Of a stretch of DNA of 64,000 nucleotides, positions 26,005 to 36,483 are shown one piece after another (position 1 is the stretch's first letter; every line of letters starts with the position of its first letter). The stretch lies in contig CBDCWI010000002.1 of assembly GCA_965223325.1 (NCBI GenBank), forward strand, positions 512,001 through 576,000. Reading direction: 5' to 3'. Origin of the DNA: Candidatus Multivoradales bacterium (lineage in GTDB: Bacteria; Acidobacteriota; Thermoanaerobaculia; Multivoradales; Multivoraceae). The notes under the pieces are model-generated. The model ran no database searches. It worked only from the letters and a program-made list of their open reading frames with translations, and was not told where the DNA came from. The translations under genes were made by a program, and so were the position numbers.

Positions 26005-28491
26005 TCAGAGTCTCTGCTGCGGCTGCCAACCCATCGCCTGCGCAGCCTGTATTCCCTGATTGGCAAACACGATCTCTTCGCGCTCCAGCCAGAAGGCGAG
26101 CGCCCGCAGGACGCGAAACTGTGGTGCACGAACGCGCTCCTCGATGGTCGCCAGATCGGCGCCGGACCGCAGGACAGTCCACAGGTCGTTGAGCAGCATT
26201 CCGTCCGGCTCGCCACGCGGAATTGTCGGCTTGGCCACCACCGGGATCATGGGCAGGGTGCTGGCGAGGGCCATGCGTAGACCAGGTCGTGCTTCGTAGC
26301 GGCGCAGACCTTCACCGATCAAACTGTCGAGATTCTCCTTGCGGGAACTCGCTGTGTCCTTCGAAGCAATGTCTTTCGCGAGGGCGCGAAATGGCGCCTC
26401 GAAGAAGCGCCACTCACCTTGGAGTGGCTGCTCGAGCAGAGCATAGAGCGCCTCACTGCCAGTCGAACGACCGCATGCCGCGGCCAGAAAACACCCGTTC
26501 TCGAACTGCACTCGGCCGCGCAGAGCGCCGTTTCCAAGATCGAGGAAGAGCTCACCGGAACGCCCGGCCTCAAACCTCTGGAAGAGGCCGGGCAAAGCAT
26601 AGGGAGCCACCTCGCCGTGCTCCGGTTCGGCTGTCTGGGCGGCGACGGGGCTCGGCTGGTTCGAAAGCGATGCCGCGAGATCGGCCGCTGCCACCGCCAG
26701 TTCCTGGTTCCCACCAGCCCGCAGGTCGTCGAGCAGGCCGAAGACTTCCGGTGAGGGAGTGCGCTTGAGCGCCGTGAGCAGGCTGCGGACGGCCTGCGCG
26801 TCAGCCCGGGGCAGGCGCCTTACTCTACCCAGGAGGCCGGGAGCGCGGAGTCGGTTGCGAACCGCGCGCACCAGAAGCGCCACCGTCTCGGGTTCGGTCG
26901 ACAGGTTCTTGCTTCCCAGCTGGGCAAGCGGCGCCGAATAGTCGAAGCGCTCGAAGTCGGAGACGATGCGTGTGATCGCCGAACGTCGGGCCTCCGGACG
27001 GCCAGACTTGATGAGGATCTCGAGGGCGAGTACCCAGAGACGTCTGGTCTCGGCCGCCGTCTCGCAGTCGTCCACCTCGGCGAGGGCAGCCGAAAGCTCA
27101 TCCAGCTTCTCTTCGAGCAGGCCCTCGGCGAGGGCACTTCTCTGCTCGCCAAGAAACAGCACCACCTCGCGCTGGAGTTGCGTTGCCCGGTCGCAACCAC
27201 CGAAACCGGCGACCAGGCGAATCTCGGCCCGGCGCCGGGCGATCGACTGGACGTGATCGCTCTGGGTGTGGCGCACGATGTGGATCAGGTTGCGCAGCAC
27301 CCACCAGCGGAGCGGGCGCCTTCGGGTCCGCTGCGCCTGGCGGCGCAGCACCTGGAGCGCCTCGTCGCGAATGCTCTCGCCATGCATGAGTGCCAGCTCA
27401 ATGAGACGGCCACGCTCGGCGCGTCTGTCCTCTCGCGCCAGCTGCTTGATCAACGCCCGTGCGTCATAGCCAGGCACATGAGACATCAACTCACTGATCG
27501 CTATGTGCTGACGGTGGCGACGAAAGGCATTGTCAAAGGCCGCGAGCTCGATGTCACCGAGCGCCTTCCGGCGCAGCACGGCGCGCTGGCGACGATCTTC
27601 CACTGCCAGCGCCAGTACCTCGTCGGTGATGTCGAAGGCCAGGGTCGCGCGCCCGATTTCACCTCGCAGCAGGCTGGCCGCCGCCGCCTGCAGCAAGAGG
27701 TCGATGCGCGCATGTGAAAGCTGGCCTGGGAGCGAGTGACGGGCGAACCGATCGCCGATCCTGAAACCCTGATGCGCACCAACGAAGCACCGCACGACCC
27801 GGCGAACGCCGGTCGCTGTGTGATGTCTCACCCTACGCCCCCGGACTTCCCAGTCAGGCAGAGCGCCGACGAGCTCTTCTGCTACCTGCTCTTCGGTCGC
27901 TCCGAGGCGCGACAAGACCTCGCGTACGACGTCGAGCTCTCCGCGCTCGAGGGCAACACCCGCCACTTCGACCAACTTCGCCGAGGACATCGCCTGGGCA
28001 ACCGCCATCGAGAGAACCGCGGCTGGTTTGACCTCCTGAACCAGTGCCACGCCGGAAAGGAGCGCCGAGGACTGCATCGCCTCAACCGCCGAGGCGTCGA
28101 GGCCTTCGAGTTGCGCCTGCATCTGGGAGCGTCGGTCCGCTGGACAAGCGTTGACGCACATCGTCCGGACGCGACTGAGGTCGGTCGAAAAACCGCGCGC
28201 CTCGACGCGCACGAGAACCGGCAGGTGGGCGAGGTCTTCGAGAGCCTCGACAATGTACGCATCGACCGGCCGCCCACCGTGCACGGCCTTCTCGTGCGCC
28301 CACGCCAGCAGACTGCCCACCAGATCGGCCGAGTCCTCGCGCAGATCGGTCAAGAGGCGCCCTGCGGCGGCGGCGTCGCGACGAACGGCGTCTAGATAGT
28401 CTCGGAGAACGGCCCCCGTGTGAAGAGCACCTGGCTCTAGGGCGAGGGTCGAAGGGCAAGGGGAGGGCCGGCTGACGGCAGCAGAAGACAT
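26005..28491 (-). CDS. Large helical-repeat protein with C-terminal DUF4388 (PatA-N)-like domain
   Basis: HEAT-like WWVLRNLIHI; C-terminal LPGLFQRFEAGRSGELFL...GRVQFENG..GSEALYALL. GAGGA RBS before ATG 28491. Confidence 0.65.
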   Translation of the reverse strand: MSSAAVSRPSPCPSTLALEPGALHTGAVLRDYLDAVRRDAAAAGRLLTDLREDSADLVGSLLAWAHEKAVHGGRPVDAYIVEALEDLAHLPVLVRVEARGFSTDLSRVRTMCVNACPADRRSQMQAQLEGLDASAVEAMQSSALLSGVALVQEVKPAAVLSMAVAQAMSSAKLVEVAGVALERGELDVVREVLSRLGATEEQVAEELVGALPDWEVRGRRVRHHTATGVRRVVRCFVGAHQGFRIGDRFARHSLPGQLSHARIDLLLQAAAASLLRGEIGRATLAFDITDEVLALAVEDRRQRAVLRRKALGDIELAAFDNAFRRHRQHIAISELMSHVPGYDARALIKQLAREDRRAERGRLIELALMHGESIRDEALQVLRRQAQRTRRRPLRWWVLRNLIHIVRHTQSDHVQSIARRRAEIRLVAGFGGCDRATQLQREVVLFLGEQRSALAEGLLEEKLDELSAALAEVDDCETAAETRRLWVLALEILIKSGRPEARRSAITRIVSDFERFDYSAPLAQLGSKNLSTEPETVALLVRAVRNRLRAPGLLGRVRRLPRADAQAVRSLLTALKRTPSPEVFGLLDDLRAGGNQELAVAAADLAASLSNQPSPVAAQTAEPEHGEVAPYALPGLFQRFEAGRSGELFLDLGNGALRGRVQFENGCFLAAACGRSTGSEALYALLEQPLQGEWRFFEAPFRALAKDIASKDTASSRKENLDSLIGEGLRRYEARPGLRMALASTLPMIPVVAKPTIPRGEPDGMLLNDLWTVLRSGADLATIEERVRAPQFRVLRALAFWLEREEIVFANQGIQAAQAMGWQPQQRL

Positions 28492-28756
28492 CCAGGATTC
28501 CTCGCAGCAATGACAACAAAGAGGGGCACAGGTTTCACTGGGTGCACGCCTCATGCCAGCAAAACCTAGGAAATCATCGCCCGTTTTTTTCGTTACAAGA
28601 GGAATCAAGAGTGTCATGGCTCTATGAATTTCTTTTATCTCTCCCGTTCCGTATCGACTCGAAACGAGCGTTGCCGACCGGGTCGCCGCCGGAGAGGGCG
28701 ACGGACGCTCCATCGGTCGCGCGTCTTCTGCCTGCACCCGATGGTCGATCACCAAC

Positions 28757-28805
28757 CTTCACCAACCCTTAACAGAGTCTTCATAAAGACGGACTTGCGG
28801 TTCAC
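28757..28805 (+). promoter_or_regulatory. PHO-box-like 11-bp periodic direct repeats
   Basis: CTTCAC (28757), CTTAAC (28768) and CTTCAT (28779) are exactly 11 bp apart, plus GTTCAC at 28800; upstream of phosphate genes. Confidence 0.6.
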
Positions 28806-29017
28806 ATAACGGCCGAATCAGAACCTGTTCGGGCCCTTCTTCTCTAAGGAACAGACTGGAGATGAAGATCCTCCGCTGGGCCGATGAACCCGGCCCGCAC
28901 ACGAGTCTCCTAGCCACCATGACCACCAATGCGACCCTGGTTTGTCTGGTTTGTCTGGCTTCTCCGGCTGGCCCTCGTCATCGACCGCCACTCGCGGTGG
29001 TGTTCTTCTTTTCTCTC

Positions 29018-29114
29018 GCGCACGGCGGTGAGGTCACCGTGCGCAGCGAACTCGGTCGCGGAACCTTGCTTCCGCCTCACTCTGCCTTCATCCAAGGAGC
29101 CGCAGATTTCCTGA
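29018..29114 (+). pseudogene. C-terminal remnant of a sensor histidine kinase (HATPase_c tail), frameshifted
   Basis: AHGGEVTVRSELGRGT continues after a 1-nt shift (~29066) as CFRLTLPSSKEPQIS-stop; no upstream kinase sequence remains. Confidence 0.75.
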
Positions 29115-29196
29115 GATCGCCGGGTGCCACGCGGGAACACGCGAGGAAGGTGCTAAGGTCCGTCTCGCTTTCCCCTGGTCTTTACGGAATCTTCAT

Positions 29197-30393
29197 ATGA
29201 CGTCTTCTCACGGCGACTCGAAGGGGCGTGCGGCGCCCTGGGCAACCCGGCTGTTTACCGTCCTCGCGCTGCTCTACATCTTCTGTATCGGCCTGGACAT
29301 GATGGGCTTGTCCTTCAAGCTCTTCGGCAAGGGCTTTGCGCAGCAGCTTCTCACGACCACCGCGAATCCCCTGGTCGGGCTGTTCATTGGCGTCCTGGCG
29401 ACCACTCTGGTGCAGAGCTCTTCGACGACGACCTCGATCGTCGTCGGTCTGGTTGCCGCCGGCGCAATCAGTATCGAGGGCGCAATCCCCCTCATCATGG
29501 GAGCCAATATCGGCACCTCAGTGACCAACACGATCGTTTCGCTAGGTCACGCCTCGCGGCGCGAGGAGTTCCGTCGCGCGTTTGCCGGCGCGACCGTGCA
29601 CGACTTCTTCAACTGGCTGGCGGTGCTCGTCCTGCTACCGATTGAGGTCTTTTTCGGACCGATCCAGGCGATCTCGACCTGGATGACAGAGGTCCTCGAC
29701 GGGGTCGGCGGCGTGAAGCTCTTCAACCCCCTGCGTGAAGTCGTACGGCCCGCCGCCGAAGCGCTTTCGGGCCTGGTCAACGAGTCGGGGGTTCTGACCC
29801 TCCTGATCGGCATCGCCCTCTTGTTCTTCGCGCTGCGCTATCTCGTCCGCGTCCTGCGCTCGAGTTTGACCGGTGAAGCCGAACAGATTCTCCACCGCAC
29901 GCTCTTCCGCTCGGCAACTGCCGCGGTCCTTGCCGGGATCGCGGTCACCGTGATGGTTCAGTCCAGTTCGGTGACCACTTCGGCCATCGTGCCACTCGTC
30001 GGCGCCGGCGTGATTTCTCTCGAACAGCTCTTTCCGTTGACCATCGGTGCCAACATCGGCACGACGGTCACCGCGATGCTCGCTGCTCTGGCAACCGGCG
30101 AGTCGGCCGCGATTACCGTGGCGTTTTCTCACCTGACCTTCAACATCATGGGCACCCTGATCTTCTTCGTGCCTCCGCCGCTGCGCCGCGTGCCCCTGGC
30201 GATGGCCCGCTGGATGGGCGATCTCGCAGCCCGTAACCGTGCAGCGGCGGCCGCCTACGTCCTCGGCACGTTCTATGGTGTTCCTCTGCTTCTCATACTC
30301 TTGACCGGCGCGTTCGGCGACAAGCCCGACACCGCGACCACTTCGGCACCTGACACGCCAGCGGCCAGCGCGAGCGTCGATCCCACCCACTGA
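29197..30393 (+). CDS. nptA: Na+/phosphate symporter (NptA/SLC34 family)
   Basis: Two QSSS and two GANIGT signatures; AGATVHDFFN. Confidence 0.92.
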   Translation: MTSSHGDSKGRAAPWATRLFTVLALLYIFCIGLDMMGLSFKLFGKGFAQQLLTTTANPLVGLFIGVLATTLVQSSSTTTSIVVGLVAAGAISIEGAIPLIMGANIGTSVTNTIVSLGHASRREEFRRAFAGATVHDFFNWLAVLVLLPIEVFFGPIQAISTWMTEVLDGVGGVKLFNPLREVVRPAAEALSGLVNESGVLTLLIGIALLFFALRYLVRVLRSSLTGEAEQILHRTLFRSATAAVLAGIAVTVMVQSSSVTTSAIVPLVGAGVISLEQLFPLTIGANIGTTVTAMLAALATGESAAITVAFSHLTFNIMGTLIFFVPPPLRRVPLAMARWMGDLAARNRAAAAAYVLGTFYGVPLLLILLTGAFGDKPDTATTSAPDTPAASASVDPTH

Positions 30394-30402
30394 GGTATTC
30401 CC

Positions 30403-31056
30403 ATGTTCAAGAAGCTTTTTGGCGACACGGCGGGCTCGGCCCTCATCGAAGAGTCCTTCCGCGAGGTCACGACGATGATCGAGCAGTCCGAACGAATGTA
30501 CAACCACGCCATCGCGGCTCTGCTCGACAATGCGCCGCTCGAAGTCGATCTCGAAGACCTCGACGACGTCGTCGACGAAGCCGAACAACGAGTCCGGCGA
30601 CGAGTGCTCGAGCACCTCGCGATCAGGCCCGATCAGGACCTGGTCTCCTGTCTACTCCTGATGAGCCTGGTTCAAGACGGCGAACGCGTTGGCGACTTCG
30701 CCCGCGGACTTGTCGAACTCGTGCCGCTGGCGCGATCTGAGCGTGTGGGACCCTTCGCTAGCCGGCTACGCGCTGCTTCGGAGGTAACGCGCGCCCTGTT
30801 CACCGACACTCGCCGCGCCCTGGTCGACGAAAACGCCGACCTCGCGGTCCGCGTTACCGACGCGGCGCGCGAGAACAAGCGCGAGATGATCGCGCTCACT
30901 GCGGATCTCGCGGCCAGCGACGCGAGCGCCGACATGGCGGTGGTCTATTCGGGTGCAGCACGGATCTTGCGCCGCATTACCTCGCATCTGAGTAACATGT
31001 GTTCGACGGTTTCACAGCCGTTCCATCGCATTCGCCACGACGACGAAGAGGCCTGA
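30403..31056 (+). CDS. PhoU-like helical-bundle protein
   Basis: DDVVDEAE..VRRRVLEHL, DGERVGD, RRITSHLSN; follows the Na/Pi symporter. Confidence 0.8.
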   Translation: MFKKLFGDTAGSALIEESFREVTTMIEQSERMYNHAIAALLDNAPLEVDLEDLDDVVDEAEQRVRRRVLEHLAIRPDQDLVSCLLLMSLVQDGERVGDFARGLVELVPLARSERVGPFASRLRAASEVTRALFTDTRRALVDENADLAVRVTDAARENKREMIALTADLAASDASADMAVVYSGAARILRRITSHLSNMCSTVSQPFHRIRHDDEEA

Positions 31057-31135
31057 GAGCTGCCAGTGAGGGCTTGGGCTTCGTGAGGCCAGAGCCACGA
31101 GCAAACCATCTTCCAAGGGTCCTGCCCCCCGGGTC

Positions 31136-33586
31136 GTGCACCGGAAGGGGACCCGGACACCTTTCCTTCGCGGCATGGTCACTCACGACCTGGTGCGTCG
31201 AGGCCTCGCCTTCGACGACGCCTATGCCGTCGCGCACGCCGTGCGGGCGGCGCTGGCAGATCGCTCGGAGGTCACCACCTCTGAACTGCGCGACATCATC
31301 AACGCCGAGCTCGAAGTTCTGGTGCCCGGCCAGGTCGACTCCGAGCCCACCGAGCCGCAGCCACCCACGCTGGCGGTGACCTACGGCGGCGAGCGCCAGC
31401 CCTTCTCCCGCGGCCTGCTGGCGCGCAGCCTCTACGGTGCCGGGATCGACCTCGACCACGCCTACTCCCTGGTCCTCCAGATTCAGCGGCAACTGGTGTC
31501 CGAACGGGTCGAGTCGATCGACGCACACGCGCTCTCAGAGCGCATGGCCGAGATTCTCGAGGAAGAGATCGGCGAACGCGAGGCCCGGCGCTACCGGCTC
31601 ATCCGGAGGCTGCAACGGCTGCCACAACCGTTGGTGATCTACTGCGCCGGCGCCACTGGTACCGGCAAGTCGACACTTTCGCTCGAGTTGGCGCCCCTCC
31701 TGCACACCTTCCGCATCACCTCCACCGACACTATCCGTGAAGTCATGCGCATGGTGTTCTCGCCGAGCATTCTCCCGGCACTCCATCGCAGCAGCTTCGA
31801 GAGTGCCGAAGCCACGGAAAAGCTAGCGGGCGAAGAAGACGACGCCCACCTCTTGCGCTCCTACGAGGAACAAGCGATCCGCGTCTGCGTTGGCGTGCGG
31901 GCAGTGGTCGAGCGTGCGCTGGCCGAGAACCAGAACATCCTGGTCGAGGGAGTGCACCTCTTGCCATCGGTGGTGCCATTCGGTGATCTCGAGGGCGCCG
32001 CCTATCAAGAGATGATCCTGCTTACGACCCTCGACGAGGAAACGCACCGCAGTCATTTTCTCGCCCGGGGACTATCGTCGGCGCGCCAACCTGAACGCTA
32101 CCTGGAGTACTTTCCTGCTATTCGCCTCCAGCAGGAGCGCTTGATCGAACTGGCCGAAGAACGCGACATACCACTCCTCGACACCGCCGAGCGCGATCCG
32201 TTCGCACCGCGTGCCCTGCAGATGCTCTCGACCTCTCTCGAATCGAAACTGCCGTGGCTGGCAGAGGCCGAACAGGTCGAGCCACGGGCCGTCCCGGGCG
32301 TGCTGCTGATTCTCGACGGCGCTCCCGACCACCCGCTGCGAGCCCTTGGTGCCCGCACACCTCTCCAGGTAGCGGAGACCCCCAACCTCGACCGACTGGC
32401 AAAGGAAGGCATCTCAGGCCTCGCTGATCCTGTGGCGGCCGGCGTCGTACCCGACACCGCCAGCGGCAACCTGTCGATCTTTAGCCAGTCGCCGCACGCC
32501 ATGAAGCGTGGACCAATCGAAGCAATTGGTGCCAGCCTGCGGCCGTCGCAAGAGGACCCGAGAGTCCTGGTCGCAGGCGGAACGACCGCTCAGGGTGCGG
32601 TGATCGTACCGCGCGTCGACGACATCTGCCTGCGCGCGAACCTCGCCACTCTCGACGACGAAGGGCGAGTCGTCGACCGCCGTGCCGGCCGCATCCGCGA
32701 CGGAGTTGCGGAGCTGGTCGCGGCACTCAACGAGATCGAGATCGATGCTCGAGGCTTCAAGGGGGTGCAGCTACGAGTCATCGCCGCAACCGAGCATCGC
32801 ATTGCGCTGGTCCTTCGCGGGCGTCGTTTGTCACCGAGCATCCATGGCAGTGACCCCGGTCAGGCGGCGCCGCCCGGGCCGCCACTCGTTCCAGCTGCGG
32901 TCGAAGAGGGTGACCGCGAGGCCGAACGCACAGCGCGCTTCCTCCAACTCTTCGAACAGCGCGCCCGCGAAGTCCTGGCCGCCCACCCACTCAACGAGAA
33001 GCGCAAGAAGGAGGGGCTTCTGCCTGCCAACGTGATCCTCTCGCGCGGTGCTGGCCGGGTCCATCGGTTGCAGCCCATCGAGCATCACGGTCGCGAGTTG
33101 TCGCTGGCCTGCGTCGGAGGCGACCGCACCGTCCTCGGTATCGCCTCATTTCTCGGTGCCGAGGTGGTCCAGGCAGACGGTATGACCGCCAACCTCGATA
33201 CCGATCTCGACGCCAAGTTTGATCGCGCCTTCCGCCTGGCCAAAAAGCACGATCTGGTCGTCGTGCACTTCAAGGGCGCCGACATCGCGGCGCACGACCG
33301 GCGCGCCGATCTCAAGATCGAGTACCTCGAGAGGTTCGACGCTGCCCTGGGTCGCTTTCTCGAGAAGACCAGCAAGCGAAAGAAGCATCGGGTACGCGTC
33401 GCGGTGGCCTCAGACCACACCACCGTTTCTGAGACCGGTCAACACGACGCCGACCCGGTCCCAGTCGTCGTCTGGGGCCCCGGTGTCGAAAGCGATGAAG
33501 TCGAGGCCTTCGACGAAGCGTCGGCTGGAGAGGGCGCGCTCGAGAGGATCCCCCTTCAACTCCTGATCAGCCGGTTGTTCGCTTGA
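31136..33586 (+). CDS. Fusion: tandem ATP-cone + 2-phosphoglycerate-kinase-like P-loop domain + ApgM-type cofactor-independent phosphoglycerate mutase domain
   Basis: PFLRGM and PFSRGLLARSL ATP-cones; GATGTGKS, STDTIREVMR, VEGVHL; then ILDGAPD, TPNLDRLAKEG, HFKGADIAAHD, ASDH, HDADPVP metal ligands. Start may be upstream (ACG 31097). Confidence 0.82.
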   Translation: MHRKGTRTPFLRGMVTHDLVRRGLAFDDAYAVAHAVRAALADRSEVTTSELRDIINAELEVLVPGQVDSEPTEPQPPTLAVTYGGERQPFSRGLLARSLYGAGIDLDHAYSLVLQIQRQLVSERVESIDAHALSERMAEILEEEIGEREARRYRLIRRLQRLPQPLVIYCAGATGTGKSTLSLELAPLLHTFRITSTDTIREVMRMVFSPSILPALHRSSFESAEATEKLAGEEDDAHLLRSYEEQAIRVCVGVRAVVERALAENQNILVEGVHLLPSVVPFGDLEGAAYQEMILLTTLDEETHRSHFLARGLSSARQPERYLEYFPAIRLQQERLIELAEERDIPLLDTAERDPFAPRALQMLSTSLESKLPWLAEAEQVEPRAVPGVLLILDGAPDHPLRALGARTPLQVAETPNLDRLAKEGISGLADPVAAGVVPDTASGNLSIFSQSPHAMKRGPIEAIGASLRPSQEDPRVLVAGGTTAQGAVIVPRVDDICLRANLATLDDEGRVVDRRAGRIRDGVAELVAALNEIEIDARGFKGVQLRVIAATEHRIALVLRGRRLSPSIHGSDPGQAAPPGPPLVPAAVEEGDREAERTARFLQLFEQRAREVLAAHPLNEKRKKEGLLPANVILSRGAGRVHRLQPIEHHGRELSLACVGGDRTVLGIASFLGAEVVQADGMTANLDTDLDAKFDRAFRLAKKHDLVVVHFKGADIAAHDRRADLKIEYLERFDAALGRFLEKTSKRKKHRVRVAVASDHTTVSETGQHDADPVPVVVWGPGVESDEVEAFDEASAGEGALERIPLQLLISRLFA

Positions 33587-35163
33587 GTCCCCTCGGCAAG
33601 AAGGCAGAGGCCGGCTGGCCCGAGCGCGAGCGTAGAGCCAATCAACCACAGCAGGTCGGAATCATCGATCTCGGTTCGAACACCGCCCGGCTCGCGGTCT
33701 ATCGCTACATCCCCGGCACCTGGTACCGATTGACCGACTCGATTCGCGAACCGACTCGCCTCGCCGAAGGTGCCACCCGCGACGGCAAGCTCAAGCGAAA
33801 GGCCATGGAGCGCGCGCAGGCGGCGGTCGAGTTGTTCGCCGACTTCGCCGAGGCCGCCGGACTGCCGCATGTCGAAGTGCTGGCGACCAGTGCCGTTCGC
33901 GAAGCGCAGAATGGCGACGAGATGCTAGCGCGCATCGCACCCCTTGATCTTCCTCTCGCCGTTCTTTCGGGCTCCGATGAAGCGCAGCTGGGTGTCCTGG
34001 CTGTTGCCAACAGCGTCGAGTACGAGGACGCTTGGGTCATCGACCTTGGCGGCGGCAGCGTGCAGGTCTCATCGATGATCGGGCGGCGTTTCGAGCATGG
34101 CCAGGCCTACCCGCTCGGTGCGGTTCGGATGACCGAAGAAGCGCTCGGTGGTGGGCACAAGCGCATTACCAAAAAGATGGTCAAGAAGCTCGAAAGCCGG
34201 GTCTCGAAGGAGCTCTCAGACATCACCCGTCTGATGGCGGCGGACAAACGACCGATCGTCGCGCTCGGCGGTAGCGTGCGCAACCTGGCCCGCATCGTCC
34301 AGCGCCAGACCTCGAACTATCCCATCGTTCCCATCCACGGCTATCGCCTGACACGTGACGCCGTCGAGCAGCTAACGGTGCGCCTGCTCCAGATGACCGC
34401 CGCCGAGCGCGCAGCCGTGCCGGGCCTCAACCTCGATCGCGCCGACATCATTCCCGCCGCGGCACTCGTTTACCGCTGGATCTTGCGCTCCAGCGGGCGA
34501 GAACGCATCACCATTTCTGGCGACGGAATGCGCGAAGGCGCCTTCCACCGTCATTTCCTGCCTGCACCACACCTCGTTCGAGACGTGCGAACTTTCGGCG
34601 TCATGAACGTTTTCGGGCAGTACGAACAACCTCTCTCCCATACCGACAAGGTTCGTTCACTCAGTCTTTCGCTCTTCGATCAACTCGAAACACGACACCA
34701 GCTCTCGAGCTCCTGGCGAGAGATTCTCTGGGCGGCGGCCACCCTGCACGACATCGGCATGACGATCGACTATCACCGTCACCATCGTCACGGGCAAATG
34801 CTGGTCGAGGCATCTCCCCTACCCGGCTGGACCCACCGCGAACAAGCAATCATCGCTCAGCTCATCCGTCACCATCGCAAGGGTGAACCGGTCATGCAGG
34901 AACTGGCCGAGGTTCTCGATGATCAGGACTGTTCGGCGTTTCTGGTCCTGGTCACGCTCCTGCGCATCGCTGAGTCGCTCGAAAGGTCACGAACCGGGCG
35001 CGTGGCCGCAGTTCGGATCCATCTGAAGAAGAGCGCGGTGAAGATAGACGTCTTCGCTGAAGAGGAACCGGCAATCGAGATCTGGGAGGCCGGTAAGCAT
35101 GCCAGCCTCTTCGAGCGCGCGCTCGATCGACCCCTCGAGATTCGTTGGAAGGAGCCGTCCTGA
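33583..35163 (+). CDS. ppx: Ppx/GppA exopolyphosphatase with C-terminal HD domain
   Basis: IDLGSNT, ATSAVREA, IDLGGGS, GMREG, LHDIG; TTG start overlaps the previous stop. Confidence 0.9.
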   Translation: MSPLGKKAEAGWPERERRANQPQQVGIIDLGSNTARLAVYRYIPGTWYRLTDSIREPTRLAEGATRDGKLKRKAMERAQAAVELFADFAEAAGLPHVEVLATSAVREAQNGDEMLARIAPLDLPLAVLSGSDEAQLGVLAVANSVEYEDAWVIDLGGGSVQVSSMIGRRFEHGQAYPLGAVRMTEEALGGGHKRITKKMVKKLESRVSKELSDITRLMAADKRPIVALGGSVRNLARIVQRQTSNYPIVPIHGYRLTRDAVEQLTVRLLQMTAAERAAVPGLNLDRADIIPAAALVYRWILRSSGRERITISGDGMREGAFHRHFLPAPHLVRDVRTFGVMNVFGQYEQPLSHTDKVRSLSLSLFDQLETRHQLSSSWREILWAAATLHDIGMTIDYHRHHRHGQMLVEASPLPGWTHREQAIIAQLIRHHRKGEPVMQELAEVLDDQDCSAFLVLVTLLRIAESLERSRTGRVAAVRIHLKKSAVKIDVFAEEEPAIEIWEAGKHASLFERALDRPLEIRWKEPS

Positions 35164-35166
35164 CTG

Positions 35167-36483
35167 TCAGCTGCTAGAGCGTGCCGGTAGCACGCGACCT
35201 CGACACTCGCCGAAACCGATCGACTGGAAGCCAGAACGCTCGCAGCGACCCCGAAGAATCAGCTCGTCGCCGTCTTCGAGGAACGCGCGTTCCTCTCCGT
35301 TGGGGAGTTTCAGAGGTTCGCTTCCCCGACGCGTGATCTCCATCAGACTGCCAAGCGACTCTTCGCTCGCTCCCGAGACCGTTCCGGTCGCCATCAAGTC
35401 GCCAGGGTTGAGGTTGCAACCGTTCGAGCTGTGGTGGGTCACCATCTGAGCAAGTGTCCAATAGATGTCGCGAAGTGACCCGCAGCTCAAGAGATGCGGG
35501 CTGAAGTCGCCAGCACGCATCGATTCGGTTTCGAGAAAAACCTCGAGCGTCACGTCGAAGCCCGCCTGAAGCGGGTCGGCACCTTCGGTCAGGTAGGACA
35601 ACGGTTGCGGATCACCGTCCGGGCGTTCGAACTCGGGCGCCCGAAAGGGCGCCAGGGCCTCGAGGGTCACGACCCACGGCGAGACGGTGGTGGCGAAGCT
35701 CTTGCCCAGGAAGGGACCGAGGGGTTGGTACTCCCAGCCCTGTATGTCGCGGGCCGACCAATCGTTCAACAGGCACAAACCGAAAATGTGTTCTTCGGCA
35801 TGCGCCACATCGATCGGCGACCCCAGTGGGTTGCCTGGGCCAATGTAGAAGCCGACCTCGAGCTCATAGTCGAGCAAGCGAGAGGGTCCAAAACTCGGCG
35901 CATCGTCGCTCGGCGCCTTGCGCTGACCGGAAGGGCGATGAAACGGCGTTCCGCTGGCGATGACCGACGACGCGCGACCGTGGTAGCCAATCGGAATGTG
36001 CTTGTAGTTCGGAAGCAACGGATTATCGGGCCGAAACAGCTTGCCGATGTTGGTGGCGTGATAGACCGACGCATAGAAGTCGGTGTAGTCGCGGACCGAG
36101 GTTGGAACACACAGTGTTGCCGCTGCCATCGGCACCAGGCATTTCTCTACCGCTTGACGCTCTCGATCGTCGGAGAGAAGCTGCGACACGACCGCACGCA
36201 CCGCACTCCATGCCCCGGACCCGAGCGCCGCTAGAGCGTCGAGGTTGGTGCTCTGGCAGGCGGCCCGAACCTCAGGCGAGAGCGAATCAACCAGGCCGGC
36301 GTCGCAAAGTGCGGAGAGATCGACGATCTGATCACCGATCGCCACCCCGACCCCGGTGGTCATATCAGCGCCACTGGAGAAGCGGCCGAAGGGGAGGTTC
36401 TGGATCGGGAACTCAGTCTCACCGGTGGCGCTCTCGAGCCAGCTGGTGAGGCTCTGTCGATGGGTTTCATTCAGCCCCGTCAT
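35167..36483 (-). CDS. fahA: Fumarylacetoacetase
   Basis: FPIQNLPFG, DYTDFYAS..HA, PIGYHGRASS, LDYELE, NDWSARDIQ, LGPFLGKSF. Confidence 0.95.
   Translation of the reverse strand: MTGLNETHRQSLTSWLESATGETEFPIQNLPFGRFSSGADMTTGVGVAIGDQIVDLSALCDAGLVDSLSPEVRAACQSTNLDALAALGSGAWSAVRAVVSQLLSDDRERQAVEKCLVPMAAATLCVPTSVRDYTDFYASVYHATNIGKLFRPDNPLLPNYKHIPIGYHGRASSVIASGTPFHRPSGQRKAPSDDAPSFGPSRLLDYELEVGFYIGPGNPLGSPIDVAHAEEHIFGLCLLNDWSARDIQGWEYQPLGPFLGKSFATTVSPWVVTLEALAPFRAPEFERPDGDPQPLSYLTEGADPLQAGFDVTLEVFLETESMRAGDFSPHLLSCGSLRDIYWTLAQMVTHHSSNGCNLNPGDLMATGTVSGASEESLGSLMEITRRGSEPLKLPNGEERAFLEDGDELILRGRCERSGFQSIGFGECRGRVLPARSSS

Follow-up and report, generated by a model that had tools for sequence, protein, structure and literature searches.

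The 2-phosphoglycerate kinase (2PGK) of Methanothermus fervidus (COG2074; NCBIfam models NF003259 and NF008994) consists of an ATP-cone followed by a P-loop kinase domain, and the archaeal-type cofactor-independent phosphoglycerate mutase ApgM PH0037 (PDB 2zkt; TIGR00306) is a metalloenzyme whose cap domain carries RxN and DRRAGR motifs. The families COG2074 and COG3635 co-occur in Thermus and Deinococcus, according to a comparative study (PMC1274311), and for a methanogen, storage of carbon and phosphate has been discussed as the role of cyclic 2,3-diphosphoglycerate (cDPG), which is made from 2,3-diphosphoglycerate (2,3-DPG) (PMC1224877). In this work, we analyzed a 64,000-nucleotide (nt) stretch of the genome of Candidatus Multivoradales bacterium (contig CBDCWI010000002.1, positions 512,001 to 576,000), hereafter called the window, in which one gene encodes an ATP-cone, a 2PGK-like kinase and an ApgM-like mutase within a single protein of 816 amino acids (aa), placed among genes of inorganic phosphate (Pi) uptake and polyphosphate metabolism. 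We tentatively favor, at not quite even confidence, the interpretation of this protein as an ATP-gated synthase converting 3-phosphoglycerate (3PG) through 2-phosphoglycerate (2PG) into 2,3-bisphosphoglycerate (2,3-BPG, i.e., 2,3-DPG) in the service of phosphate homeostasis.

The fusion protein shares with the M. fervidus enzyme the order of ATP-cone and P-loop kinase as well as the motifs GxxGxGKS, STDxIR, LHxSSF, EGVHLxP and RYL..F..IR, and kinases of equivalent operons pass the 2PGK equivalog cut-off. It differs from this enzyme in scoring below both 2PGK cut-offs, in having an extra cone-like module and a fused mutase, in its location among Pi/polyphosphate genes, and in its host, a bacterium with no known cDPG. 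In the open-access text searched, the 2PGK papers examined concern archaea or plants, and no assayed bacterial member was found. Like ApgM PH0037, to whose fold it corresponds (TM 0.85), the second half of the protein has the same metal ligands and carries both of the above motifs in its cap domain. Unlike PH0037, it has Thr in place of the Ser nucleophile and A-S-G-N in place of the following D-T-A-H, it belongs to a Thr clade without a characterized member, it is fused with a kinase, and its genome encodes another, Ser-type ApgM.

The plant 2PGK homolog Lpa1/OsPGK1 belongs to the same kinase family and is genetically tied to phosphorus storage (PMC4844318, PMC4844270), controlling seed phytate and total phosphorus (PMC4844318). 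As these two reports describe it, it differs from the bacterial fusion in being eukaryotic, in having no reported mutase partner, and in its proposed substrate, inositol monophosphate. Another point of reference is 6-phosphofructo-2-kinase/fructose-2,6-bisphosphatase (PFK-2/FBPase-2), in which a P-loop small-molecule kinase is also joined with a phosphoryl-transfer domain acting on the same metabolite family. However, its second domain is a histidine phosphatase and not a metalloenzyme of the alkaline phosphatase superfamily, and it has no ATP-cone, hence the likeness is an analogy of logic only.

Within the open-access literature, no paper was found that connects the 2PGK family with polyphosphate in bacteria or with the Pho regulon, the listed papers in which both subjects occur being plant studies or, by title, unrelated; those retrieved for ATP-cones together with polyphosphate were, judged by title, unrelated as well. 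The individual domains are known; their fusion, the Thr-type partner clade and the phosphate context are not described in the literature searched.

Domain Architecture of the Fusion Protein

The gene of the fusion protein and its distinguished parts are as follows:

31136..33586, plus strand: ATP-cone kinase-mutase fusion, 816 aa (Pfam, NCBIfam and PDB matches; AlphaFold2 model)
31136-31321, plus strand: cone-like module, residues 1-62 (repeated secondary-structure pattern in the model)
31364..31621, plus strand: ATP-cone, residues 77-162, Pfam span 85-160 (PF03477, E 9e-8; PDB 5olk)
31622..32260, plus strand: P-loop kinase domain, residues 163-375 (2PGK models, family-invariant residues, fold)
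31649-31672, plus strand: Walker A motif, G172-S179, within the kinase domain
32297..33583, plus strand: ApgM-like metalloenzyme domain, residues 388-816 (PDB 2zkt, E 1e-61)
32456-32458, plus strand: codon of T441 (HMMER alignment to 2zkt)
32555-32620, plus strand: 22-residue Gly/Ala/Val-rich insert, residues ~474-494, in the mutase cap region (alignment, model)

Translation starts either at GTG 31136 or, according to the database gene call, at ATG 31175 (803 aa). The AlphaFold2 model of the whole protein as a single chain reached a mean pLDDT of 90.6 and a pTM of 0.85. A preliminary description of the locus had reported two ATP-cones, and the second of them stands on both Pfam and structural grounds, as the modeled residues 77-162 superimpose on the ATP-cone of NrdB (5olk; Z 11.4), with a root-mean-square deviation of 1.9 Å over 85 residues. 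The first one is only cone-like: residues 1-62 gave no Pfam ATP-cone match, the model shows the hairpin-plus-helices pattern again, and this module looks N-terminally shortened relative to its homologs.

The 2PGK models cover residues 4-376 (NF008994) and 86-352 (NF003259). The folds nearest to the kinase domain are those of gluconokinases (Z 15.6, 14.5 and 14.4), followed by nucleoside monophosphate, shikimate and dephospho-CoA kinases, and the PFK-2 kinase domains 1bif and 5hr5 were matched with Z of 11.4-11.6. In the mutase half, Metalloenzyme and PhosphMutase (ApgM-type) matches extend over residues 388-805, and the best Foldseek match was 2zkt_B (TM 0.85, target-normalized; E 1e-29), after which came GpmI-type mutases and phosphopentomutases, with alkaline phosphatase also matched. 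The contrast between PDTASGN of this protein and PGSDTAH of ApgM, which had been taken to indicate a Thr nucleophile, was borne out by HMMER, in whose alignment vpdTasgnlsif of the query lies on pagSdtahlsif of 2zkt, so T441 falls on the position of the Ser nucleophile of the solved ApgM. Residues D394, D716, H720, D760, H761 and H770, which correspond to the metal ligands of cofactor-independent phosphoglycerate mutase structures, align with 2zkt, as do R500, N502 and D514-R519. The insert in the cap region is present in only one of 70 aligned fusions (this protein) and is predicted to be disordered (pLDDT < 50).

Conservation and Distribution of the Fusion

A word-index sequence search with the fusion protein returned 603 relatives, and the best 120 of them, for which details were obtained, are all 790-850 aa long and 52-100% identical to the query, with at least 98% query coverage. 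These best 120 originate from Acidobacteriota/Thermoanaerobaculia assemblies and are labeled in the source as phosphoglycerate mutase, ATP-cone protein or hypothetical. Of 41 related genomes (same genus, family and order), 32 encode the fusion in one frame and two contain fragments of it at the ends of contigs; in five, the sole match is a mutase-like one (32-34% identical to the mutase half of the fusion), and in two there is none. Within 151 genomes sampled evenly across the phylum, the fusion was found in 12, adjacent separate kinase and mutase genes in three, and the kinase alone in two (one of which, G088, is unpublished; no other result rests on it), and 134 of the 151 lacked any counterpart of the fusion at a threshold of E <= 1e-60. 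Finally, an exhaustive search revealed a second fused clade (~37% identity), and also proteins that stand alone, namely ApgM-like ones (43-46%) and two-cone kinases (33-38%).

Whether the fusion might be an assembly or gene-calling artefact joining two neighbors had been raised as a point to be checked. We consider this explanation refuted, and its probability negligible: the frame is uninterrupted in 32 of the 41 related genomes, several closed chromosomes as well as metagenomes being among the carriers, and the single-chain model is a confident one. In one relative (G038, C2:841265-843632, locus L045), the first cone-like module is out of frame with the rest of the fusion, for which a frameshift, an error in the sequence or a gene divided in two are conceivable reasons.

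Conservation of the residues was traced in 128 aligned fusions, all of which have Thr at position 441. At least 127 of the 128 keep the Walker A residues (G172, G177, K178, S179), the kinase-family residues D198, R201, R205, Q246, R260, E264, H274, R311 and R317, the mutase residues D394, D716, H720, D760, H761 and H770, and the cap-domain residues R500, N502 and D514-R519 (DRRAGR). In a set of 25 diverse members of the kinase family, including the fusion, S91, P165, G172, G175, G177, K178, D198, R201, R205, P214, S219, Q246, R260, E264, G272, V273, P277, R311 and I329 are invariant, and most of these residues, with all of the P-loop and catalytic ones, are kept in at least 127 of the 128 fusions; the kinase-family residues R260, H274 and R317 are among those retained by the protein of the window. 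As judged from these alignments, both halves look catalytically competent. Together with the search results, they support the view that this is a genuine and widely distributed fusion, each half of which is subject to selection.

Phosphate and Polyphosphate Genes around the Fusion

The fusion gene lies within a group of four genes on the plus strand (29197-35163), whose order and common orientation agree with the preliminary description and whose domain matches are consistent with the gene names given there:

29197..30393, plus strand: NptA-type Na+/Pi cotransporter, 398 aa (PF02690, E 4e-40, two stretches)
30403..31056, plus strand: PhoU-like protein, 217 aa, single PhoU domain (PF01895, E 5e-11)
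31136..33586, plus strand: the kinase-mutase fusion (see above)
33583..35163, plus strand: exopolyphosphatase, Ppx/GppA family, long form, 526 aa (PF02541, E 2e-45; PF21447, E 3e-28)

The genes nptA and phoU-like are separated by 9 nt, and phoU-like and the fusion gene by 79 nt, whereas the last two genes overlap, as had been noticed, the stop of the fusion gene and the start of ppx sharing the 4 nt TTGA. The TTG at 33583 is the sole in-frame ATG/GTG/TTG ahead of the conserved Ppx N-terminus. Since the downstream fumarylacetoacetase gene is convergent with ppx, the latter is the last gene of the unit.

The recurrence of such a neighborhood was counted with one query set (NptA, PhoU, Ppx, PPK1, CHAD, Pst), one threshold and a distance of 4.5 kb. 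At least one of these genes was present in 24 of 47 other kinase-mutase loci, a count in which several negative loci have short flanks and two loci (L061 and L147) look like one organism. As background, the same query set covers 0.9% of the genome studied, its own locus included. As a control, 14 ordinary ApgM loci were taken from a single-protein homolog search of genome contigs (which returned one fused relative besides), and in none of the 14 was a phosphate gene or a kinase found nearby.

The claimed linkage of the fusion to phosphate genes was thereby found again, in varied arrangements. Besides NptA-PhoU-fusion, to which the congener L028 adds Ppx and PPK1, there are loci in which PPK1 is divergent from a SixA-like gene and the fusion (L031, L047, L054, L056, L057, L142, L143), in which Ppx-CHAD-ParA-fusion (L051) or CHAD-ParA-SixA-like-fusion without Ppx (L030) are encoded, and in which pstS-phoU-pstCAB is followed by the fusion (L061/L147; L031, L032, L046). 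In what we regard as the most telling case, the distant relative L141, with a 2.1-Mb genome, has the same gene set in unfused form (NptA-PhoU-Ppx-mutase-CBS-kinase). These differing arrangements argue against simple inherited synteny. Beyond the phylum the link is weaker: Ppx is directly upstream of a standalone kinase in five of 63 metagenome loci, and the remaining standalone metagenome kinases have ParA-like, RsbW/STAS, CBS or unrelated neighbors. One lineage of standalone two-cone kinases (L084:4024-5163, L130:3666-4769 and about 30 more metagenome loci) is encoded divergently from a ParA-like ATPase carrying a glycogen-binding AMPK1_CBM module, with MerR, M48 peptidase and MoxR/VWA genes nearby and the five above-mentioned Ppx genes directly upstream.

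Regulatory and phosphatase genes were also identified in these neighborhoods: PhoR/PhoB-like pairs adjacent to the fusion (L040, L053, L055), HAD phosphatase genes (L030, L146), and a small SixA-like His_Phos_1 gene directly before the fusion in eight of the 47 other loci, not at the locus in the window. The His_Phos_1 superfamily is also that of the FBPase-2 domain. These genes bear on a rather improbable alternative, in which the protein would be a kinase/phosphatase switch similar to PFK-2/FBPase-2 that sets the level of a signal metabolite, probably 2,3-BPG. Its Thr-type domain of the alkaline phosphatase superfamily would remove or pass on the phosphate, the ATP-cones would decide which activity wins, and from the metabolite, polyphosphate or Pho components would read the state of energy and Pi. 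The PFK-2 fold of the kinase domain, the resemblance of the mutase model to phosphopentomutases and alkaline phosphatase, and the recurrence of energy sensors (ATP-cones in all forms, CBS pairs at L141, L107 and L076) are in agreement with such a switch. On the other hand, the substrate-cap domain and its Arg cluster are of the true-mutase type, the likeness to PFK-2 is weaker than that to gluconokinases and common to many P-loop kinases, and no receptor of the proposed signal was identified. The Pfam search also gave no His_Phos_1 match in the fusion itself, i.e., no histidine phosphatase domain of the PFK-2/FBPase-2 type.

Kinase-Mutase Coupling and the Thr-Type Mutases

The relationship of the two halves was further analyzed on a tree of 98 mutase domains, obtained in a quick IQ-TREE run in which the key split had an SH-aLRT support of 86, not 95 or more. 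The fusions occupy at least three separate places in this tree, and adjacent unfused kinase and mutase genes occur in both orders (L098, L106, L113, L116, L139, L140, L141). All fused or kinase-adjacent mutases fall into one 50-row group, every row of which has Thr, and the Thr/Ser label requires four changes on the tree versus about 32 in shuffles; the Ser-type side includes the second ApgM of the genome studied. Kinases of this family have partners of three kinds, i.e., a fused or adjacent Thr-type ApgM-like mutase, an ApgM passing the equivalog cut-off, and a GpmI-type mutase. Comparison of these fused and split forms supports the coupling of the kinase and the mutase.

It should be stressed that Thr is not a special mark of the fusion, as could have been supposed from its motif. 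There is a large Thr-type ApgM clade in which standalone proteins with GTDVGHL-like motifs are common, and one member, the Thr-type ApgM of L076, passes the ApgM equivalog cut-off (NF003104, 495.6 vs 489), which suggests that Ser may not be strictly defining for ApgM. The three PDB matches of the mutase half are all Ser-type, and none originates from the Thr clade.

Two further kinds of neighbors of unfused genes were observed. Small CBS-pair proteins adjoin unfused kinase or mutase genes (L141:7245-7712, L107:5560-5988, L076:6120-6635) and may be a second adenylate-sensing partner. Genes of an RsbW-like anti-sigma kinase and a STAS protein immediately precede the kinase gene or the kinase-mutase gene pair (L102:5071-5959, L139:8498-9338, L140:8509-9337), which hints at a link to stress partner-switching.

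The genome studied encodes a separate ApgM paralog (C2:3772913-3774163), which passes the cut-off of NF003160 (497.4 vs 468) and probably serves glycolysis; its apparent counterpart in most relatives is a weaker ApgM-like match outside the fusion, with 30-37% identity to the fusion's mutase half. Because this paralog passes NF003160, the fusion is presumably not the housekeeping mutase. The opposite view, that it is a glycolytic cofactor-independent mutase with a regulatory N-terminus and an inactive kinase, agrees with the source annotation (2,3-bisphosphoglycerate-independent phosphoglycerate mutase) and with the fact that no GpmI and no clear GpmA were found in this genome. However, besides the paralog and its counterparts, at least 127 of 128 fusions have retained Walker A together with every invariant residue of the kinase family, and the bulk of the phylum sample (134 of 151 genomes, at the threshold given above) has no match to the fusion, which makes a glycolytic role very improbable.

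Proposed Substrate and Function

According to the reading we favor, the Thr-nucleophile metallo-mutase domain of the ApgM type would convert 3PG to 2PG, and the 2PGK-type P-loop domain would phosphorylate 2PG with ATP to 2,3-BPG, the reaction being gated by the adenylate level through one or two N-terminal ATP-cone modules. The gene would be co-transcribed with those of the Na/Pi cotransporter, the PhoU-like regulator and the exopolyphosphatase, with a Pho-box-like operator upstream, and because of this co-transcription and operator the enzyme is expected to act when the Pi flux changes. It could then be an ATP-dependent phosphate sink or buffer, switched on with Pi import and polyphosphate breakdown, which transfers phosphate from ATP to a small organic compound kept as a stable pool, either alongside polyphosphate or in its place. 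The architecture, the active-site conservation, the kinase-mutase coupling and the phosphate gene linkage were observed directly; for the substrates, the product, the direction of the flux, the ligand of the cones, the Pho control and the physiological role, the assignments above are those that we infer.

Phosphoglycerate as the substrate has indirect support from the protein families involved. It is favored because the kinases of L141 (348.1) and L107 (353.6) pass the NF003259 cut-off of 343, because the L107 kinase adjoins a GpmI-type mutase (319.3 vs the TIGR01307 cut-off of 330.65), a different family with the same substrates, because the L076 kinase is located near an ApgM that passes the equivalog cut-off, and because the cap-domain residues common to the solved ApgM are invariant. 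The sugar-acid kinases, as the nearest kinase fold, were also counted toward this substrate.

The same architecture might act on another phosphorylated hydroxy-acid or polyol, so that the product would be a phosphate-related metabolite other than 2,3-BPG. Inositol phosphate (as proposed for plant Lpa1), glycerate, phosphoglycolate and phospholactate are the candidates, and we regard this alternative as unlikely. It is compatible with the scores of both halves, which lie under the equivalog cut-offs, and with the list of NCBIfam matches, in which NF008996, NF038358 PhpG and TIGR02535 are all present. The lack of a Thr-clade ApgM-like protein among the three PDB matches points in the same direction, as does plant OsPGK1, a proposed inositol monophosphate (InsP1) kinase that controls phosphorus storage (PMC4844318, PMC4844270). 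A different substrate is less easily reconciled with the cut-off-passing kinases of the same context (L141, L107), with kinase partners that include a GpmI-type mutase and a cut-off-passing ApgM, and with the invariance of R500, N502 and DRRAGR, which are common to the solved ApgM.

Several observations weigh against the assignment as a 2,3-BPG synthase of phosphate homeostasis. The kinase half is under both 2PGK equivalog cut-offs (NF003259, 249.4 vs 343; NF008994, 259.3 vs 603), and the mutase half missed those of the ApgM models (TIGR00306, 312.4 vs 320; NF003104, 336.9 vs 489), the shortfall for TIGR00306 being marginal and the match broken by the 22-residue insert. Families with other substrates are represented among the NCBIfam matches of the fusion, namely NF008996 (mevalonate-3-phosphate 5-kinase) as a 2PGK relative, and PhpG (NF038358) and a proposed homoserine kinase (TIGR02535) as ApgM relatives. 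To our knowledge, neither the fused nor the unfused enzymes of this bacterial clade have ever been assayed, and we know of no established use for 2,3-BPG in bacteria. A phosphate sink is not an obvious element of a Pi-scavenging operon. Moreover, 23 of the 47 loci, including those of the best-sampled genus (L034, L035), have no phosphate gene, and split pairs without phosphate genes are located by RsbW/STAS genes (L139, L140) or by MoaE and biotin carboxylase genes (L098, L106). As for the Pho-box-like pattern upstream of nptA (described below), its five genome matches are barely above the three obtained with a reversed control pattern, and in 46 loci of other species (538 kb) neither the pattern nor its control gave any match.

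The results suggest that a glycolytic intermediate is connected with the phosphate balance in a way not described before. A broader proposal, a bacterial signaling or buffering system of phosphate and energy built on 2,3-BPG or a close relative of it, in which a Pho-controlled, ATP-cone-gated kinase-mutase would operate with PPK1, PPX, CHAD and Pi transporters, is put forward as speculative and, at present, doubtful. If true, such a system would determine the levels of polyphosphate and of Pi in the cytoplasm, would parallel in prokaryotes the eukaryotic inositol-pyrophosphate logic, and would be related to the unexplained role of Lpa1 in plant phosphorus storage. Bacterial sensing and buffering of cytoplasmic phosphate and ATP is only partly understood, and the family comprises hundreds of members in soil and sediment bacteria that are now labeled as an ordinary glycolytic mutase. 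If the fusion makes 2,3-BPG, it would represent an ATP-dependent route to this compound outside archaea and red blood cells, and a new player in phosphate homeostasis. Since Lpa1 is a breeding target for low-phytate crops with unsettled biochemistry, a bacterial enzyme could also be a tractable model.

Flanking Genes and the nptA Leader

The cotransporter was matched by TIGR01013 (239.6 bits) and by NF037997 (119.4 bits, over its cut-off of 50). The PhoU-like protein reached 43.9 bits versus the cut-off of 130 of the full-PhoU model TIGR02135, and a canonical two-domain PhoU is encoded elsewhere in the genome, in the pst locus; by these scores the 217-aa protein is a second, divergent PhoU paralog. 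YjbB of E. coli and Salmonella carries PhoU domains, and the NptA and PhoU-like proteins of the window look like a split form of such a Na/Pi-family transporter. Unlike YjbB, they are encoded by two genes, and the best model match is to the NptA/SLC34 type (TIGR01013). YjbB is described as a Pi exporter whose overproduction lowers polyphosphate (PMC7980370).

The exopolyphosphatase (Ppx-GppA plus domain III) scored 250 bits with TIGR03706, under the cut-off of 307. PPK1 was not found in this genome, either by the Pfam search or by tblastn with PPK1 of relatives, and three PPK2 domains are encoded elsewhere in it. In a congener (G001, L028:2028-4283), ppk1 is placed between ppx and the fumarylacetoacetase gene, while here ppx directly abuts the latter (35163-35167) with no ppk1 in between, which looks like a clean loss of ppk1 at this locus.

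In the region upstream of nptA, two elements were distinguished:

28757..28811, plus strand: Pho-box-like phased repeats CTTCAC N5 CTTAAC N5 CTTCAT N16 GTTCAC, 386-440 nt upstream of the nptA start
28991..29065, plus strand: presumed remnant of the 3' terminus of a gene for a PhoR-like histidine kinase (25 aa, compared with the PhoR-like kinase of the genome)

The three-unit pattern STTMAY-N5-STTMAY-N5-STTMAY (<= 1 mismatch) was scanned over the 6.69-Mb genome, and the sole perfect match among the five was that upstream of nptA (28757-28784). Of the other four, two precede a Porin_O_P (phosphate-selective porin) gene by 65 nt and two precede pstS by 88 nt, this region being present twice in the assembly. 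A putative Pho control of the operon is suggested by this distribution, and the repeat, if it is a real operator, would be specific to this species. The two-unit Pho-box pattern was rejected as evidence: its single match in the window was reached by 26 of 100 shuffles, and its 24 matches in the genome compare with 23 of the control. An open reading frame (ORF) of 916 aa (26005-28755, minus strand), divergent from nptA and without a Pfam match, has its nominal start abutting the repeats. The oprP-like/pstSCAB/phoU/phoB/phoR locus, outside the window, gave identical, inverted matches on C1:2091600-2100000 and C2:4536100-4543200, reflecting either a genuine duplication close to the ends of the contigs or an overlap left by the assembly.

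The 25 aa encoded at 28991-29065 share 64% identity (pairwise BLASTP E 4e-6) with the C-terminal ATPase motif, residues 400-424, of the PhoR-like kinase encoded in the same genome, and this segment of the nptA leader is probably what is left of a decayed phoR. The ORF 28862-29200 (112 aa), which had no Pfam match and only this 25-aa likeness to the PhoR end, was discarded as a real gene. The 440-nt leader gave no Rfam match to a riboswitch or other RNA at E <= 1, and the sigma-70 promoter scan revealed no sites. Terminator-like sites numbered 7 versus 4.8 expected, all of them weak and within coding sequence. The leader also contains a tandem GGTTTGTCT present twice at 28940-28957. Far from the operon, at 636-854 on the minus strand, a group II intron RNA domain (RF02005, 180.6 bits vs a gathering score of 49) was identified as the sole Rfam match in the whole window.

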